Source: Escherichia phage FL12. Taken from it: 64,000 nucleotides of DNA. Under the pieces are notes generated by a model. That model searched no databases. It was not told the origin of the DNA and saw only the letters and a list, made by a program, of their open reading frames with translations. Shown piece by piece: positions 3,015 to 12,051 of the stretch. The stretch lies in the sequence record PP400786. One strand, given 5' to 3'. The first letter of the stretch is position 1. Every line of letters starts with the position of its first letter. The position numbers and the translations under genes were made by a program.

Positions 3015-3516
3015 TTAAAAGTATTTTTTAAAACTCATCATAACTTTATCATCAACATCATTATCAATCTGTGCAACAAGGTAAGATGACAGTTCTACTT
3101 CTTGTGGCGCGGATTGAACATTATCAGAATTAAGATATTCACGAATCCAAGGATACGGATGTTTAACCGGAGCATCGGTAATTGGGCATGGAAGACCACA
3201 CTGTTTCATACGAGATACAGTTAAGTAATCAATAAAGCTCCACATGCTATTTGTATTTAATCCAGGAACATCACCATCTTTAAATAAATGAACTGCCCAA
3301 TCTTTTTCTTGGCGGTTAACTTCCATGAAAATATCAACTGCTTCTTGTTCACACTCTTGAGCAATTTTAACCCATTCATCACCATCAGTGCCGGATTGAA
3401 GTTGACGAATAATATATTGAGTGCCTTTAAGATGAAGCTGCTCATCACGAGCAATGAACTTCATAATCTTGGCATTACCTTCCATGATTTCCATGTTCTT
3501 ATGGAAGTTAAAGGTA
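3015..3516 (-). CDS. nrdB: ribonucleotide reductase beta subunit, exon 2
   Basis: ...TFNFHKNMEIMEGNAKIMKFIARDEQLHL... is the conserved R2 region that follows ...FYVSFAC; splice acceptor inferred. Confidence 0.7.
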
Positions 3517-4107
3517 CCGTTATGTTCGATTGAGCTCGCTAATTCTCAACCCGTTCTCTTATGAACTGCTACATATTACTATGCAGACCAGACTATATCA
3601 CAATCCCAGAGGGATTCTCCCCATTTCGAGTCGCTTGACCCTACGTCCGAAGACTAGTCGTTGAACCTTGCTTTGCAATTGTCGCCGTGCCATCGTTTAT
3701 ATGTTGATGGTGATAAATCTTTCTTATCACAATATGGACAATTCAATTGAATTCTATTTGGATTTAATTTACATCTGTCATTATGTTTTAGATAAAATCC
3801 AGGACCTTTACCAATGTGCCCGCAGAAATCACATGTGATTTCTTTTTGTGCAGGATGGGTCCCGTTCTTAACCATTTCTAATGTTTTTGCTGATGTTCTT
3901 TTCTTATGGTCCCATCAGAATCTTTAAGTAGGTCCGTCAGCATCTATCCAAATTTTTCTATAGTTCAATTGTGCATCCTCTTAAAAGTATAATCATATTA
4001 TACTAATTAAAGGTGCAAGCAAAACCTTGGCTGCTAGTTTTCCTATAAAGGACTTTCCAGCAATTAAAGGAGTTTTCGATAAACGTTACCGTTTAAAGGC
4101 GCATTTT
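3517..4107 (-). mobile_element. group I intron in nrdB (about 591 nt)
   Basis: Exon 1 frame stops right after ...FYVSFA; exon 2 resumes about 590 nt downstream; inferred junction GCGU|GUACC gives ...VSFACTFNF...; intron ends in G. Confidence 0.6.
3654..3875 (-). CDS. degenerate intron endonuclease ORF (I-TevIII-like, zinc finger)
   Basis: 73-aa ORF inside the intron with CDFCGH...CPYCDKK zinc-finger motifs; too short for a full HNH enzyme. Confidence 0.5.
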   Translation of the reverse strand: MVKNGTHPAQKEITCDFCGHIGKGPGFYLKHNDRCKLNPNRIQLNCPYCDKKDLSPSTYKRWHGDNCKARFND

Positions 4108-4783
4108 ACGCAAAAGATACATAAAAACGAATAGCTTCTAAGGCATTAATAACGTGCAAACAGAGGTAAAGAGATTTCATTAAAGCACGTTTAGCTTCGG
4201 CTTCTTGTTTAATAGCTCGGTTTAAACGAAAGTCGGCATCAGGAGATTCTTTAGCTAGTTCTACAAATTCTTTAGCATTTTCCCATTCACGGGTTTTAAC
4301 CAAGACATCATCATAATAACGTCCAATGGATTCAGCTCGTTTCATAATAGCTTCATCTAATACAATCTCATCAAATACCTTTGACGGATCAGTATAAAGA
4401 TTTCGCATGATATGAGTATATGAACGACTGTGAATAGTTTCACTAAAAGTCCATGTAGCAACCCATGTATCTAATGAAGGATCTGAAAGCAATGGCATAA
4501 GTACCGCAGATGGTGCACGACCTTGAATGCTATCAAGTAACGATTGATATTTAAGATTATTAGTAAAAATATTTTGTTGATACTGAGGAAGTTTATTAAA
4601 TTGAGTAGCATCCATCATCAAGTTAACTTCTTCAGGACGCCAGAAAAACGAGAGCTGACGTTCAATAAGTTCTTCAAATACCCTATGTCGTTGAATATCA
4701 TAACGTGCAATTCCAAGACCAGACCCAAAAAACATGGGTTCTGTTAAAACATCGACCTGTTTAGTATTAAAAACTGTACTCAT
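4108..4783 (-). CDS. nrdB: ribonucleotide reductase beta subunit, exon 1
   Basis: MSTVFNTKQVDVL... ending ...ALEAIRFYVSFA, the conserved R2 radical-site region. Confidence 0.8.
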
Positions 4784-6375
4784 TATTTTGTCCTGTAAAC
4801 TAAATTTCCACAGTCCCAGATTCTTCTAAGACCATTTGCATAACAATTTTCTACTTCAGTTATTGTATCATCATAATTTTTAAGCTTGTTTTTAAGCTTA
4901 TGTTTCATATAGCTTGAGCGGTGAAATACCTCTCCTTTATCGACGTACCAATAACACGGCTCAGAGATATGACTAAATTCCATGACAGAGTCATAAACAT
5001 TTGATAATGTACTGCACCATCTTCGATTGCCATAAGATAGACAATTAATTCCTTTTAATAATTTTGAGACTCCTCCTACAACACAAACCCCCAATTTTGA
5101 ACACATCCTTAAAAGTTCATCACCTGAGCTATATCTAGATTTACCGATAGAAATAATTTGAACTAACTCATTATTGTAATAAAGTCCTTTATACGTATGA
5201 GCTCCCGAGCAAAATCCTTGAAGATGATTCTTATTAATAAATTCTTTTGCCTCATCCTTATTAACAAAACGCGCTTTGCATTTTCGGGCTGGTATTCTTT
5301 CTGATAATCCTAATTTATGCTTTATAATGGATTTCCAGATCTCTCTTTTTGTATCATCAATCCATTCATTTTCGAAGATGTGAAGTAATTGAATTCCTTG
5401 TGCTTCACACATCTCTGTCTTCATCAAATGATAAGTTTCTTTAATTTTATCTGTTTCCTTTGACCCGCTAGAATGCCAATAAATTCCATCGTATTCTATA
5501 GCCAATTTTTTCTCAGGAATGTAAATATCTAATTCATACGGAGGAATAATTTTTCTAGTTTCTACGCAATCAAATCCTAGATCTAAAATGAATTGCTCTA
5601 TAGAACTTTGAGTATAATGAACGTCAATTAGTCCTTTGGATGAAAGAGCTCTATAAGCCGTCATCCGAGAACAATTTGCTAATTGTTGTAGTTCTTCTAT
5701 AGAAATTTTGTAATTGATTTTATCTAGTATATCATGATTAATATGACCGTTATTTTTAATAGATTTTCCTATAGATGAATATAACGATGCCTTATATTCT
5801 TCAGTCCAATTTAATTTGGTCTTCTTAGATTTTTCGCGAGATTTTTTAGAATGCAGAATATCAACTGATTTACCGTTTTCTATAACTTTTCTCGCTTCTT
5901 TCACACTTTCTAATTGTGAATTATGCGTTACCCCATATCGTTCAATTAAAGTTTTTCTATTTTTATTTCTTGAAATTTTTTGATGAGTTGTTCCATATTT
6001 TTCTAAAGAATTTTTGTGTTGAAGTTCAGACAAATATTTTTTATATTTTTCTTTTCCACCAAAATTTGTATCACGGCTTTGAGTTCTCTTATCCGCGAAA
6101 AATATCCCTGCGCAGGATTTACTACATGTTGCTGGAAATACACGTTTCTTTGCTGTTTTCAGAGAAATGAAATTTCCACAAACTGCACATTTTAGATCGT
6201 TAATGTCAATGCCTTCCATAATTTGGAACACATTGAGCTTAAAATCTATTCCATCAGTTAGAAGAGCTTTATCTTCTTCTGTTAGTCTAGATTTAAGTTT
6301 TTCTTCTCCAAATGGAAGAAACTTTCCGTTTTTGTATATATTATCAAACATAGCGTTATTCTTAGTTAACCACAT
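4783..6375 (-). CDS. large nuclease-like protein of unknown type (zinc ribbon, basic repeats, Vsr/DUF559-like motif)
   Basis: 530-aa ORF between nrdA and nrdB; CAVCGNF...CSKSCAG; repeated KYGTTHQ / RYGVTHNSQ; ...LAIEYDGIYWHS...GIQLLHIFENEW. Confidence 0.55.
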   Translation of the reverse strand: MWLTKNNAMFDNIYKNGKFLPFGEEKLKSRLTEEDKALLTDGIDFKLNVFQIMEGIDINDLKCAVCGNFISLKTAKKRVFPATCSKSCAGIFFADKRTQSRDTNFGGKEKYKKYLSELQHKNSLEKYGTTHQKISRNKNRKTLIERYGVTHNSQLESVKEARKVIENGKSVDILHSKKSREKSKKTKLNWTEEYKASLYSSIGKSIKNNGHINHDILDKINYKISIEELQQLANCSRMTAYRALSSKGLIDVHYTQSSIEQFILDLGFDCVETRKIIPPYELDIYIPEKKLAIEYDGIYWHSSGSKETDKIKETYHLMKTEMCEAQGIQLLHIFENEWIDDTKREIWKSIIKHKLGLSERIPARKCKARFVNKDEAKEFINKNHLQGFCSGAHTYKGLYYNNELVQIISIGKSRYSSGDELLRMCSKLGVCVVGGVSKLLKGINCLSYGNRRWCSTLSNVYDSVMEFSHISEPCYWYVDKGEVFHRSSYMKHKLKNKLKNYDDTITEVENCYANGLRRIWDCGNLVYRTK

Positions 6376-6391
6376 CCTTGTGGTAATTATA

Positions 6392-7381
6392 TCATAATTT
6401 ACAGGATGAACAATCTTCAGCTTTTGGAGTTTCTATTTCATAATCATCAGTACCAGAACCATCACGGGTATTATGATAATAGAAATTTTTAATGCCATAA
6501 TACCATCCGTATAGCATGTCATCAATCATTATTGACATTGGAACCTTTCCTTTTGGAAAAATCTGCGGGTCATAATATGTATTCGCTGAAGCTGATTGAC
6601 ATACCCATTTCAGCATAATAGCTACCTGCGTAAGATAAGGTTTATTACCTTTCTTAGCTAATTTCCATGTATAGTCGTAAAGGTCTATGTTATGCTCAAT
6701 ATTGGGCACGACTTGATTAAAGGAGCCCTCTTTTGATTCTTTAACAGAGACTGGTCCACGTGGAGGCTCGATACCGTTTGTACTGTTAGAAACTTGGGAA
6801 GATGACTCACATGGCATAAGTGCTGATAATGTGCTATTACGGATGCCAAAGAGCTTAAGGTCTTCCCGCAGCGCCGACCAATCACAAACGTATTTTGGAG
6901 CTGCGATTTGGTCAATCTTTTTATTGTACCAGTCGATAGGTAATTCGCCTCGAGACCAACGAGTGTCTGAATAATATTCGCAAGGTCCTTTTTCTTTGGC
7001 GAGCTTAATGGATGCTTTAATGAGTCCATACTGTAATCTCTCAAATAGTTCATGTGTTAAATCGTTAGCATCTTCATAAGAAGCAAAGTTACTTGCCAGC
7101 CAAGCTGCATAGTTGGTAACACCTACACCAAGATTTCGACGCTTTTTAGCTTTTTCTGCTTCAGGAACTGGATATCCTTGGTAATCCAAAAGATTATCAA
7201 GAGCACGAACTTGAACTTCTGCCAATTCATTAATTTTATCTTGGTCTTGCCAGTCAAAATTATCCAGTACGAATGCGCTAAGGGTACAAAGCCCCACTTC
7301 TCCCTTGTTTTCAATAACTTCTATTGTAGTATACTCATCATCTTCGTAAAATTCATCTACAAATTCATAATCAATATTCAT
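6392..7381 (-). CDS. nrdA: ribonucleotide reductase alpha subunit, C-terminal fragment
   Basis: ...GLCTLSAF...LSALMPCESSSQ...NTRDGSG...CSSCKL, matching the C-terminal third of class Ia R1. Confidence 0.85.
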   Translation of the reverse strand: MNIDYEFVDEFYEDDEYTTIEVIENKGEVGLCTLSAFVLDNFDWQDQDKINELAEVQVRALDNLLDYQGYPVPEAEKAKKRRNLGVGVTNYAAWLASNFASYEDANDLTHELFERLQYGLIKASIKLAKEKGPCEYYSDTRWSRGELPIDWYNKKIDQIAAPKYVCDWSALREDLKLFGIRNSTLSALMPCESSSQVSNSTNGIEPPRGPVSVKESKEGSFNQVVPNIEHNIDLYDYTWKLAKKGNKPYLTQVAIMLKWVCQSASANTYYDPQIFPKGKVPMSIMIDDMLYGWYYGIKNFYYHNTRDGSGTDDYEIETPKAEDCSSCKL

Positions 7382-8081
7382 TTAATTCTTTTACCTTTTT
7401 TCTAGTAATTCCTAAAGCTTTAGATGCTCGATGTATTGATTGATATTCTATACCGTTTATTTTTACAGCAATTAAGTTATGGGGTTTTAATCCCTTTGGA
7501 TGAGGTTTACTGACGAAAACTAAATTATCAAGCTCTGAAATCTTATCCAATTTCTTACACTTAAATCCTTTGTGATGCGACCGTTTACCTTTACAAACGG
7601 CTGACATTGCAGATGGATTTAAATTATGCTCTTTACAAAATTCGTTAAGACCTCGATGAATTTCCTCATGACCATCAGGAAATGTAAACACCCAAGATGT
7701 TTGAAGTCGAGATTTAACTTCTGGAGACATAGGAATACCTTTGTTCCAAGCTGGTTTGCCTTTATTATTTTCAGATACAGAAATAGCCAATTTTCTTCTA
7801 AGCCACCCATGGCGTTTATTGGTGTTCTTTCGTTCAATATTATCTTTAGAATAAACACACATCATATTAGCGGCAAATATCAATTTATGATTATTTGGAT
7901 ATATCTTTACTAATAATTGATGAGCTATGTAATGCTCTTCTGGCGTCAAATCTACCAGGTTTTCCTTTGTATCAGAACCACCAATACACAGAGGTATAAT
8001 ATGGTGTGATTCGGTATAGCAATCTAATTTTCTATTCTTAGCTTTAGAAATAAGGTTATTGTAAATTTTAAAATAATCCAT
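7371..8081 (-). CDS. HNH homing endonuclease inserted within nrdA
   Basis: 236-aa ORF with ESHHIIPLCIGGSDTKENLVDLTPEEHYIAH motif; stop overlaps the start region of the downstream nrdA fragment. Confidence 0.8.
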   Translation of the reverse strand: MDYFKIYNNLISKAKNRKLDCYTESHHIIPLCIGGSDTKENLVDLTPEEHYIAHQLLVKIYPNNHKLIFAANMMCVYSKDNIERKNTNKRHGWLRRKLAISVSENNKGKPAWNKGIPMSPEVKSRLQTSWVFTFPDGHEEIHRGLNEFCKEHNLNPSAMSAVCKGKRSHHKGFKCKKLDKISELDNLVFVSKPHPKGLKPHNLIAVKINGIEYQSIHRASKALGITRKKVKELNEY

Positions 8082-8126
8082 AACTTTTCCTCTTGTTATG
8101 GATTATTTATTAACGGTCTGTGTACT

Positions 8127-9560
8127 TTATTTGCTTTGAATTATACCGTCAGGATTAGCTTCATAAAACTTAGCTACATCCGACTTCTTAATTTTGATTA
8201 AACGGGTTTGTTGGCTATTCACATCATTTGTTGGAATAGCAATTTCACAACACAAGTTACTCTGACGAATAGGCGCCTTTTCGCGAATAAACGGAGTGTA
8301 GTTATTCGTATTATCAATGAACTGTACATAAATCCTTGCTGTTCCTGAACGTTCAGTCATGAGCAATTCAAATAGTTCACGGGCTTTAATACGCTTTTTA
8401 CGAATATTAGGGTCTTTTTCTGCTGCTTCGTATAATTCACGGAAACGGTCTTGGTCTTTAAAATAAGAATAATAAAGCTCGCCACCCATTTCATGTGGAC
8501 TGAACAAAGTAATGTAATCGTTCTTTCCAAAACGTTCCATCATCAAATCATTCAGCTGAACACCATAATCCATATGACGAATGCGGTTTTCTTCTACGCC
8601 TTTGTTATTTTTCAAAACGAGAAGATTTTCAACTTCCAAATGCCAAATAGGATAATAAGCAGTAGCAGCGCCGCCACGAATTCCACCCTGTGAACATGAT
8701 TTAACTGCAGTCTGAAAATGTTTCCAAAAAGGAATAACACCAGTATGGCGTACTTCACCCATGCCAATCTTAGAACCTTCGGCACGAATCATACCAACGT
8801 TAATACCAATTCCAGCGCGTTTAGAGATATATTCAACAATTGAAGCGGAAGCCTTATTGATAGACTTCAATGAATCTCCTGCCTCAATAACAACACATGA
8901 ACTAAACTGTCGAGTAGGAGTACGACAACCAGCCATAATAGGAGTTGGCAGTGAAATTTGTCGGGTTGATACTGCTTCATAAAAACGAATAACGTGTTTT
9001 AGTCTATCAACAGGTTCATCTTGATGCAGTGCCATTCCAATAGTCATAAATGCAAACTGTGGAGTTTCATAAATTTGACCAGTGGTTTTATCTTTAACTA
9101 GATATTTTTCTTTTAATTGCATCGCCCCGGAATAAGTAAATTCCATATCCCGCTCATGCTTAATTTTTGATTCTAAAAATGTAATTTCTTCTGCTGAATA
9201 TTTTGACAATAATTCAGGGTCGTATTTACCTTCATTTACACAGTAAGAAATATGGTCAATAAATGAACGTGGTTCATACTGCCCATAAACATGCTTACGA
9301 AGAGCGAACATTAGACAACGTGCAGCTACATATTGATAATCAGGCTCTTCAACCGAAATAGAATTCGCAGCGGCCTTAATGACAATAGTCTGAATATCAT
9401 CAGTTGTCATTCCATCACGGAGATAAGATTTAATATTTTCATATAATTCATAAGGATCTACTGATGTTCCTTCAGCTGCCCAAGATAAAACTTTAATAAT
9501 TTTTTGTGGGTCAAAGCTCTGAGAAACACCACTACTTTTGATAACATTAATTAATTGCAT
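8127..9560 (-). CDS. nrdA: ribonucleotide reductase alpha subunit, N-terminal fragment
   Basis: ATP-cone N-terminus; ...MAGCRTPTRQFSSCVVIE... and ...SNLCCEIAIPTNDVN then 26 non-conserved residues and stop. Confidence 0.85.
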   Translation of the reverse strand: MQLINVIKSSGVSQSFDPQKIIKVLSWAAEGTSVDPYELYENIKSYLRDGMTTDDIQTIVIKAAANSISVEEPDYQYVAARCLMFALRKHVYGQYEPRSFIDHISYCVNEGKYDPELLSKYSAEEITFLESKIKHERDMEFTYSGAMQLKEKYLVKDKTTGQIYETPQFAFMTIGMALHQDEPVDRLKHVIRFYEAVSTRQISLPTPIMAGCRTPTRQFSSCVVIEAGDSLKSINKASASIVEYISKRAGIGINVGMIRAEGSKIGMGEVRHTGVIPFWKHFQTAVKSCSQGGIRGGAATAYYPIWHLEVENLLVLKNNKGVEENRIRHMDYGVQLNDLMMERFGKNDYITLFSPHEMGGELYYSYFKDQDRFRELYEAAEKDPNIRKKRIKARELFELLMTERSGTARIYVQFIDNTNNYTPFIREKAPIRQSNLCCEIAIPTNDVNSQQTRLIKIKKSDVAKFYEANPDGIIQSK

Positions 9561-9877
9561 AAGTCCTCAACTTGAAAATCGTCTTTAAACAATCGGTTAA
9601 CTATATGAGCTATTATATCACCATGACACGGCTTTGGTTTACATGTGCATCCTAGCCTCATTCCACGTAAAGGCTCTAAATGTGCTTTAGTTATTTCTCC
9701 GGATTTAATTCGACGTATAAAATCTTTTTTGAATAATTCAATGGCAGCCTCCCGGCTGCCAGCATCTTTACCGACGTAATTTCCCCAAAATGTACCACGG
9801 TGAATATTAACATCAAAGTCGGATTTATATTTATTCACTACCCGACATAGACGGCCCACGCTGGAATAATTCGTCAT
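9551..9877 (-). CDS. hypothetical Cys/His-motif protein
   Basis: 108-aa ORF with [15 protein letters not shown]; stop overlaps nrdA start. Confidence 0.5.
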
Positions 9878-10106
9878 ATTGTTTTTCCGTTAAAACAGTA
9901 ATATCGTAGTAACAGTCAGAAGAAGTTTTAACTGTGGAAATTTTATTATCAAAATACTCACGAGTCATTTTATGAGTATAGTATTTTTTACCATAAATGG
10001 TAATAGGCTGTTCTGGTCCTGGAACTTCTAACTCGCTTGGGTTAGGAAGTGTAAAAAGAACTACGCCAGAAGTATCTTTAAATCGTAAAATCATATATCC
10101 TCGCAA
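9831..10106 (-). CDS. hypothetical protein
   Basis: 91-aa ORF between td and nrdA; start may be an internal Met. Confidence 0.4.
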
Positions 10107-10114
10107 TAATAAAA

Positions 10115-11798
<1,684 letters not shown>

Positions 11799-11808
11799 AT
11801 TATTTTCC

Positions 11809-12051
11809 TCAAACAGACTTTTTCACAATTTTCCAATCAGCTTTAAACTGTTCAACGTCAGAATGGTAAATCCAGAATCCTGCGCTTTCTCCATCCTCAT
11901 AAAGAGGGCATCCATCACATTCATCTTCCCATCCCATATCACGCAAAAGACGTTCAGTTTTTTCAACAAGTTCAGAATCTTTACCGATGATATTAAAATA
12001 CCATTTACCCCTAACTTCTGAATCTTTAATGCTCTGACGTTGTAATCTCAT
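11809..12051 (-). CDS. hypothetical protein
   Basis: Track ORF 11809..12087; shortened to an internal Met because an early promoter overlaps the 5' extension. Confidence 0.4.
   Translation of the reverse strand: MRLQRQSIKDSEVRGKWYFNIIGKDSELVEKTERLLRDMGWEDECDGCPLYEDGESAGFWIYHSDVEQFKADWKIVKKSV

Follow-up and report, generated by a model that had tools for sequence, protein, structure and literature searches.

The ribonucleotide reductase (RNR) gene nrdA of Escherichia phage FL12 is carried in two pieces, nrdA-a and nrdA-b, with an HNH homing endonuclease gene lying between them. We analyzed a stretch of 64,000 nucleotides (nt) from this phage (sequence record PP400786), referred to below as the window, and we are confident that the interruption is a T-even coliphage copy of the genes-in-pieces nrdA cassette of Aeromonas phage Aeh1, from which two polypeptides would be made with neither RNA splicing nor protein splicing. 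The window was studied by profile matching against Pfam, Rfam, and PHROGs and by alignments, a sequence-level analysis throughout. The phage is of the T4 type, as a preliminary description of the region had proposed, and its nearest records are Tequatrovirus such as vB_Eco_F26 (97.6% identity across the region). The split is already on record: GenBank entries annotate both nrdA pieces and the endonuclease in approximately 34 T-even phages, and copies of this kind are referred to as unpublished in a 2022 preprint (bioRxiv 10.1101/2022.08.31.505936). What is added here is the family-wide conservation and selection of the two short protein extensions, or tails, that flank the endonuclease gene, the transfer of the cassette as a unit, the covariation of a hairpin over the endonuclease start, and a patch of silent polymorphism by the insertion site.

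A single class Ia NrdA is covered jointly by nrdA-a and nrdA-b, which share the minus strand with the HNH gene (Table 1). Pfam assigns the ATP cone, the all-alpha domain, and positions 1–221 of the 523-position RNR barrel profile to nrdA-a, and positions 219–523 of the same profile to nrdA-b. Alignment to the uninterrupted nrdA of phage FL18 indicates that the 916-nt insert stands in place of 12 nt coding for NPDA, the intact allele reading ...PTNDVN-NPDA-EIGLCTLSAF... at this point. In E. coli numbering, the replaced residues correspond to D454–G457, based on alignment to E. coli R1 structures. The equivalents of C225, N437, C439, and E441 are all found within nrdA-a, whose core is 100% identical in amino acids to the intact T-even NrdA of 754 residues. 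Cys32 of nrdA-b corresponds to C462; this fragment, whose core aligns to E. coli R1 residues 452–751, also possesses a YY pair aligned with Y730/Y731 and ends in the motif CSSCKL. The insertion therefore falls in the loop between the C439/E441 strand and the C462 strand. The end of the HNH gene, including its stop codon, overlaps the start of nrdA-b by 11 nt. The preliminary description had placed three minus-strand open reading frames (ORFs) at these same positions, the endonuclease stop over the start region of the downstream fragment, the break between the conserved Cys-x-Glu and the next conserved cysteine, and the CSSCKL tail on the downstream ORF. All of these agree with the exact coordinates, the division of Pfam domains, and the alignments, and the insertion point is now fixed by alignment to E. 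coli NrdA. Its count of 27 added residues on nrdA-b matches the alignment to intact nrdA, but the extension of nrdA-a measures 29 residues rather than 26.

Table 1. Components of the interrupted nrdA gene in the window.
Feature	Coordinates	Strand	Size	Description
nrdA-a ORF	8127..9560	minus	477 aa	
nrdA-a core	8217..9560	minus		NrdA residues 1-448: ATP cone, all-alpha domain, first barrel half
nrdA-a C-terminal tail	8127..8216	minus	29 codons	SQQTRLIKIKKSDVAKFYEANPDGIIQSK; net charge +3; followed by TAA stop at 8127..8129
nrdA-a/HNH spacer	8082..8126	minus	45 nt	GTACA motif; late-promoter-like box AATAAATA at 8104..8111
Predicted RNA hairpin	8071..8108	minus	14 bp	Shine-Dalgarno (SD) sequence AAGAGGAAAA in loop; HNH AUG in 3' arm
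HNH homing endonuclease gene	7371..8081	minus	236 aa	Free-standing; homolog of Aeh1 MobE
nrdA-b ORF	6392..7381	minus	329 aa	
nrdA-b N-terminal leader	7301..7381	minus	27 codons	MNIDYEFVDEFYEDDEYTTIEVIENKG; net charge -9
nrdA-b core	6392..7300	minus		Second barrel half and stop codon
3' exon patch	7253..7300	minus	~48 nt	Dense, almost entirely synonymous differences; adjoins cassette
Whole mobile cassette	7301..8216	minus	916 nt	Tail, hairpin-bearing spacer, HNH gene, leader

The split nrdA of Aeh1, within an nrd operon at 41.5–44.6 kb of NC_005260, has reportedly been studied by Friedrich et al. in PNAS in 2007 and by Gibb and Edgell in 2007 and 2009. The same gene is interrupted at the same point, between the equivalents of C439/E441 and C462, and the three ORFs come in the same order and with similar sizes (473, 237, and 323 amino acids in Aeh1; 477, 236, and 329 in the window). 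The spacer between nrdA-a and the HNH gene measures 46 nt in Aeh1 and 45 nt in the window, and the endonuclease gene overlaps the nrdA-b start in both phages (14 and 11 nt). Homology to Aeh1 MobE spans the entire HNH protein (46% identity over 227 amino acids, E 2e-59), and both tails are homologous to their Aeh1 counterparts as well, with the same basic/acidic polarity: the alignments pair ..TRLIKIKKSDVAKF.. with ..KMLFKVKKSEVDKF.. and ..EFYEDDEYTTIEV.. with ..EVYEDEEYTTVEI... Finally, a hairpin covers the endonuclease start in both, next to a late-type promoter box in Aeh1 and to a late-promoter-like box in the window. The preliminary description had considered the Aeh1 split comparable; the homology of the HNH protein and of both tails indicates a closer relationship than this.

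Several features nonetheless separate the two copies. Their NrdA cores are merely 49–58% identical, and the window is a coliphage of the Tequatrovirus/Mosigvirus type in which nrdA belongs to an frd-td-nrdA-nrdB cluster, whereas td and frd of Aeh1 lie approximately 160 kb from its nrdA-nrdB cluster. In the window hairpin the AUG is in the 3' arm and the SD sequence in the loop, whereas Aeh1 has the SD sequence in the 3' arm. The window, unlike Aeh1, also carries a second homing endonuclease (530 amino acids) between nrdA-b and nrdB. In Aeh1, one tail is basic (pI 10.4) and the other acidic (pI 3.8), and the mature proteins retain them; activity, dimerization of the heterodimer, and tight binding of NrdB all require the tails (Crona et al. 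2011 NAR, PMC3045599). The same authors reported that database searches with the Aeh1 tails returned nothing (PMC3045599).

Relatives were sought in a collection of 5.8 billion proteins with a profile built from the C-terminal half of the HNH sequence. The search yielded a graded series of full-length relatives presenting 45–99% identity to the window protein, and all those whose genomic context was examined sit inside nrdA. This includes the five diverged relatives from metagenome assemblies whose context was examined (five of five; 48–65% identity in the C-terminal domain). These five are flanked by an N fragment of 474–476 amino acids and a C fragment of 324–328 amino acids, with two exceptions: the N fragment of L093 is 614 amino acids long and holds an intein too, and the C fragment of L095 is clipped at the contig end. 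With the window copy and Aeh1, they form a family of seven copies, all at one nrdA site (the members compared for their spacers, besides the window, are L005, L091–L093, L095, and L096).

Both tails were found in all seven copies and both are lacking in intact nrdA, based on the alignment to FL18. The family consensus of the nrdA-a tail is K.L[IV]KI[KR]KSD[VI]..F (motif LIKIKKSD..F) and that of the nrdA-b leader is [I]EYE[IF]V.EFYED[DE]EYTT[IL].[VI] (motif EFYEDxEYTT). Net charge ranges from +3 to +7 for the former and from -7 to -13 for the latter. The lengths of the fragments, their stops, and their starts are kept in the seven copies, and all members present a purine-rich SD-like element 8–16 nt upstream of the nrdA-b start, within the 3'-terminal part of the HNH gene. 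With such an element of its own, nrdA-b can be made while the endonuclease is repressed. The spacers of all seven members also contain the motif GTAC[AG], mostly as GTGTACA[CT]A, 4–28 nt past the nrdA-a stop (8118..8122, minus strand, in the window).

Synonymous sites are saturated between the seven copies, with proportions of synonymous differences (pS) of 0.5–0.96. The proportion of nonsynonymous differences (pN) was 0.07–0.34 for the leader, which is similar to the NrdA cores (0.07–0.36), and 0.22–0.55 for the nrdA-a tail. Because pN is low where pS is saturated, the tails are translated and selected, and represent neither junk nor intron RNA. These comparisons show purifying selection on both tails across seven diverged copies. 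The extensions had been described as non-conserved: this holds relative to intact NrdA but not within the cassette family, where they are both conserved and selected. Hydrophobic moments computed along the tails could not distinguish a strand from a helical conformation.

A different possibility is that the 916-nt insert is an HNH-bearing group I intron whose removal by splicing leaves an uninterrupted nrdA mRNA, as with the introns of T4 td, nrdB, and nrdD. T-even phages possess such introns in neighboring nucleotide-metabolism genes, including the nrdB gene of the window, and the parts of the insert outside the ORF (~200 nt in total) would in principle be long enough. Broad Rfam scans (4000..12000 and the whole window) gave no intron match, but scans of this kind also miss the ORF-bearing introns of F26, so that one negative scan is weak evidence. 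For this reason, we relied on narrow searches with matched controls. A permissive search of 7250..8270 with the Rfam model Intron_gpI gave no match at E<=10, whereas the same settings recovered the nrdB intron of the window (34 bits, E 8e-7, 3569..3809) and the ORF-bearing td intron of phage F26 (37 bits, E 1e-7). Moreover, the sequences flanking the HNH gene read in frame with the exons and present a conserved stop, a conserved ATG, and an SD-like element; they are conserved as protein in seven diverged copies at synonymous saturation; and the four exon codons (NPDA) have been lost rather than preserved. We consider an intron very improbable. The preliminary description had named a search for a group I core as a check of its genes-in-pieces reading; run on the insert, this search found no core.

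The tails might instead be the halves of a split intein, in which case protein trans-splicing would ligate the two fragments in the manner of the fractured genes described by Dassa et al. (2009). Indeed, the metagenomic loci L033 and L028 contain split inteins with an embedded endonuclease gene approximately 14 codons upstream in nrdA, charge complementarity is typical there too, and Crona et al. entertained the idea that the tails are what remains of an intein (PMC3045599). With 29 and 27 residues, however, the tails are much shorter than any Hint fold. We detected no Hint or intein domain by Pfam in the nrdA fragments, and the isolated tails gave no Pfam match at E<=10. The junction residues are also inadequate: the N tail opens with Ser-Gln-Gln and lacks an initial Cys/Ser in an intein context, and the leader ends in Lys-Gly without a final His-Asn. 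The +1 residue would be Glu, which rules out protein splicing at this junction. Finally, the tail peptides of Aeh1 were found in the mature proteins (PMC3045599). A split intein thus appears even less probable than an intron, and the absence of either signature, together with the homology to Aeh1, supports the genes-in-pieces reading that had been advanced for this locus.

The cassette is patchily distributed. The same architecture was found in 32 phage records covering the whole query, and the HNH protein is present at >=80% identity in 34 records; these carriers represent ~34 of ~825 T-even records (~4%) and span Tequatrovirus and Mosigvirus. In one of them, Escherichia phage HY01 (NC_027349), RefSeq lists the HNH gene and leaves the nrdA fragments unannotated, though both ORFs are intact. 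This recurrence bears on the idea that the split results from a sequencing or assembly artefact, or from programmed recoding by frameshift or read-through. Some split nrdA annotations probably have such an origin, e.g., the two abutting coding sequences without insert in Shigella phage SHFML-26. In contrast, the identical architecture, including a complete foreign gene of 711 nt and the same stops and starts, occurs in 32–34 independent phage records and in several metagenome assemblies, which leaves this explanation a negligible probability. The 397-residue NrdA fragment of SHFML-26 was considered as a second type of split and was rejected as probably reflecting a frameshift or stop. Its nrdA spans 237..2501 of L098 as coding sequences of 1071 nt and 1194 nt, and at 90% identity the protein collection groups this fragment in a cluster of 50 sequences.

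Sequence divergence along the locus differs sharply between the cassette and its surroundings in some carriers. Relative to the window, phages F2, AV111, and PTE-Eco05 present about 77% nucleotide identity in the nrdA exons, but 97–99% in the nrdA-a tail, 98–100% in the spacer, 88–99% in the HNH gene, and 94–99% in the leader. Since the cassette is 88–100% identical where the exons are ~77% identical, the whole tail-HNH-tail unit has moved between diverged nrdA alleles, and the cassette was transferred horizontally as one unit. The first 60 nt of the 3' exon are 76–90% identical among carriers, against 95–98% for the rest of the gene in close relatives. Within the patch of ~48 nt that adjoins the cassette and is included in these 60 nt (codons EVGLCTLSAFVLDNFD), carriers differ almost solely at silent sites. 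Cassette-free T-even alleles (L099–L102, L001) also fall into two silent haplotypes in the ~50 nt 3' of the insertion point, one of the T4/FL18 type and one of the phage 107/Nami/NBG2 type; over 35 nt the two types are separated by ~10 synonymous changes, while the genes share ~99% identity elsewhere. In carriers, the first 12 nt of the patch take a third form, with an Ile-to-Val change. This pattern suggests that the patch is a candidate recognition/cleavage or co-conversion zone, and it may represent a footprint of targeting by the endonuclease.

The HNH protein itself matches the Pfam family I-HmuI_NUMOD-like (1.5e-9) and the homing endonuclease family phrog_655 of PHROGs (6e-59), whereas its match to the Pfam HNH family is weak and under the Pfam cut-off. 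Residues H26, H27, N41, H50, and H54 are invariant in the relatives compared, and the gene presents a pN of 0.20–0.42 against a pS of 0.65–0.80 among the family copies. Close matches to its C-terminal DNA-binding half were found in nrdA-internal copies only. When IMG/VR was scanned with the HNH alignment, most of the matches were canonical mobE genes in intergenic positions, and Aeh1 itself was also recovered.

The hairpin over the start of the endonuclease gene has a free energy of -14.5 kcal/mol and a z-score of -4.5 to -5.5, and none of 200 shuffled sequences was as stable. A stable hairpin covers the endonuclease start in all seven family members, with z-scores of -2.1 in L092 and of -5.3 to -7.4 in the others. 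These hairpins come in two layouts; among the four members that share the layout of the window, compensatory changes were observed at three pairs and no pair was broken. The hairpin is predicted to repress translation of the endonuclease from read-through transcripts. A late-promoter-like box overlaps its 5' arm, reading AATAAATA in the window and exactly TATAAATA in L091 and L093; a late transcript would consequently lack that arm. Scans of the region for sigma-70 promoters and terminators yielded no enrichment. In Aeh1, mobE is controlled by a start-region hairpin and a late promoter, as are the intron endonucleases of T4 (review PMC2988022), and the arrangement in the window is consistent with late-promoter use at the HNH gene.

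Taken together, we propose the following scenario for the FL12 locus. A MobE-family HNH gene would have entered the loop between the Cys439/Glu441 and Cys462 strands, bringing with it a basic tail of 29 residues for NrdA-a and an acidic leader of 27 residues for NrdA-b. Two polypeptides would be made, with translation of NrdA-b beginning at its own start codon within the last part of the HNH gene, and these would assemble into a composite active site. The tails would help form the (NrdA-a/NrdA-b)2-NrdB2 holoenzyme, as was biochemically shown for Aeh1; by analogy, the split enzyme is expected to be active and to require its tails. By burying the HNH start codon, the hairpin would silence the endonuclease on early and middle read-through transcripts, and the endonuclease would probably be made late, from a late-type promoter starting inside the 5' arm of the hairpin. 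In mixed infections, the HNH protein may then cut cassette-free nrdA alleles, and repair would copy in the tail-HNH-tail unit.

Some observations weigh against parts of this scenario. The window box matches TATAAATA at 7/8 positions only, and scans of the region for this consensus revealed no enrichment. The silent patch varies among cassette-free alleles too and constitutes no proof of a recoded target. Lastly, T4 nrdA is dispensable in the laboratory, and function cannot be assumed from presence alone. It is conceivable, then, that the insertion inactivated nrdA and that the two pieces are decaying pseudogenes, with ribonucleotide reduction supplied by host NrdAB or by the anaerobic NrdD of the phage, and the lack of annotation of the HY01 fragments in RefSeq would fit such a view. 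Decay is difficult to reconcile, however, with an nrdA-a core that is unchanged in protein relative to intact alleles, with the retention of all catalytic residues, with a pN well below pS for both fragments and both tails in copies at synonymous saturation, and with fragment lengths, stops, and starts conserved in every family member. In addition, the Aeh1 homolog has full specific activity (PMC3045599). We regard inactivation as improbable, though less so than splicing of either kind, and favor a functional nrdA in two pieces.

This arrangement can be compared to other systems in which endonuclease genes are associated with phage enzyme genes. T4 MobE belongs to the same Mob family as the window protein through its N-terminal nuclease domain and is also encoded in the RNR operon, but T4 mobE is intergenic (nrdA-nrdB) and splits nothing. 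In T4, the insertion of a Mob-family HNH gene also splits the topoisomerase genes (gene 39/mobA/gene 60), with similarly charged C- and N-terminal extensions (PMC3045599; bioRxiv 10.1101/2022.08.31.505936). The target gene is different, however, and the tails are unrelated; gene 60 also possesses a 50-nt translational bypass, and nothing comparable was seen at the window nrdA. The fractured nrdA genes (Dassa et al. 2009, PMC2677866) are interrupted in the same active-site stretch and likewise consist of two ORFs with an endonuclease gene between them, but they presumably rely on trans-splicing by Hint halves of ~100 and ~35 amino acids, whereas the window presents no Hint signature. The group I introns of T-even td, nrdB, and nrdD similarly place a mobile endonuclease in a nucleotide-metabolism gene, under hairpin and late-promoter control. 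In contrast, the window insert has no ribozyme core, and the rescue would operate on proteins rather than on RNA.

Other mobile elements were observed in nrdA. Seven IMG/VR loci (L033, L035–L038, L040, and L028) carry a fractured nrdA with a split intein (..QSNLC|CVTGE.. / ..ILVHN|CEI..) and a free-standing GIY-YIG or HNH gene between the intein halves, at the C439/C440 codon. This site is 14 codons upstream of the MobE cassette site, and a canonical mobE-like HNH gene follows nrdA. L093 (1107..4687, ENA ERZ14207129) combines a contiguous mini-intein at C439 (QSNL|CLSGDSL...ILVHN|CLEIA), marked by the precomputed Pfam families of the gene product, with a MobE cassette 14 codons downstream. Finally, L032 (757..3444, IMG/VR contig 3300042400_000402) has an ORF of 235 amino acids at the exact nrdA point used by MobE (..DDEGE | IALCTL..). 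This ORF is GIY-YIG-like by motif, without Pfam support, and its tails are unrelated to those of the MobE cassette and reversed in charge, with an acidic N tail of 43 amino acids and a basic leader. The N tail presents a weak match to Intein_splicing (E 0.013), and further upstream the gene contains a split intein whose N part is merely ~19 amino acids long.

Such elements were also observed in the surrounding region of the window. The nrdB gene is interrupted (3015..4783, minus strand), its exon ORFs (4106..4783 and 3015..3494) flanking a group I intron; the intron contains a remnant ORF of 73 amino acids (3654..3875) matching the C-terminal end of intron-type endonuclease PHROGs. The second homing endonuclease ORF (4783..6375, minus strand) occupies the position between nrdA-b and nrdB where T4 has mobE. 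It matches phrog_3339 (2e-150) and, weakly, the Pfam family REase MTES_1575, and its end abuts the nrdB start; at this position, phage SG1 is annotated with a 'Hef-like homing endonuclease'. Together with the HNH gene and the nrdB remnant, this brings the RNR operon of the window to three endonuclease-type ORFs. The td gene (10115..10975, minus strand, 286 amino acids) is uninterrupted in the window, and close relatives present a td group I intron, with a degenerate endonuclease ORF in FL18 and an intact one in F26. Intron and endonuclease content therefore varies freely among phages with near-identical exons.

The tails of Aeh1 were proposed earlier to be unique sequences, by-products of one transposition event. 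Their conservation, selection, and linkage to the endonuclease across the family sharpen this view, and we lean slightly toward the interpretation that the tails are no by-products but an old, conserved, and portable pair of assembly peptides belonging to the mobile element itself, which would constitute a self-contained split-and-rescue cassette. If this is correct, any nrdA allele would be open to invasion by the cassette, which would immediately compensate for the disruption with no splicing step; this would add a third strategy to those of introns and inteins. The insertion in L032 hints at more than one origin of split-and-rescue, with decayed split inteins as a possible source. Rescue of a broken essential-enzyme gene by assembly peptides had previously been characterized only in Aeromonas phage Aeh1. 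The FL12 cassette would bring it into T4-type phages infecting E. coli, the best-developed phage genetic system, where carriers of the cassette have close relatives that lack it, and the short basic/acidic pair may serve as a natural assembly tag for split proteins.

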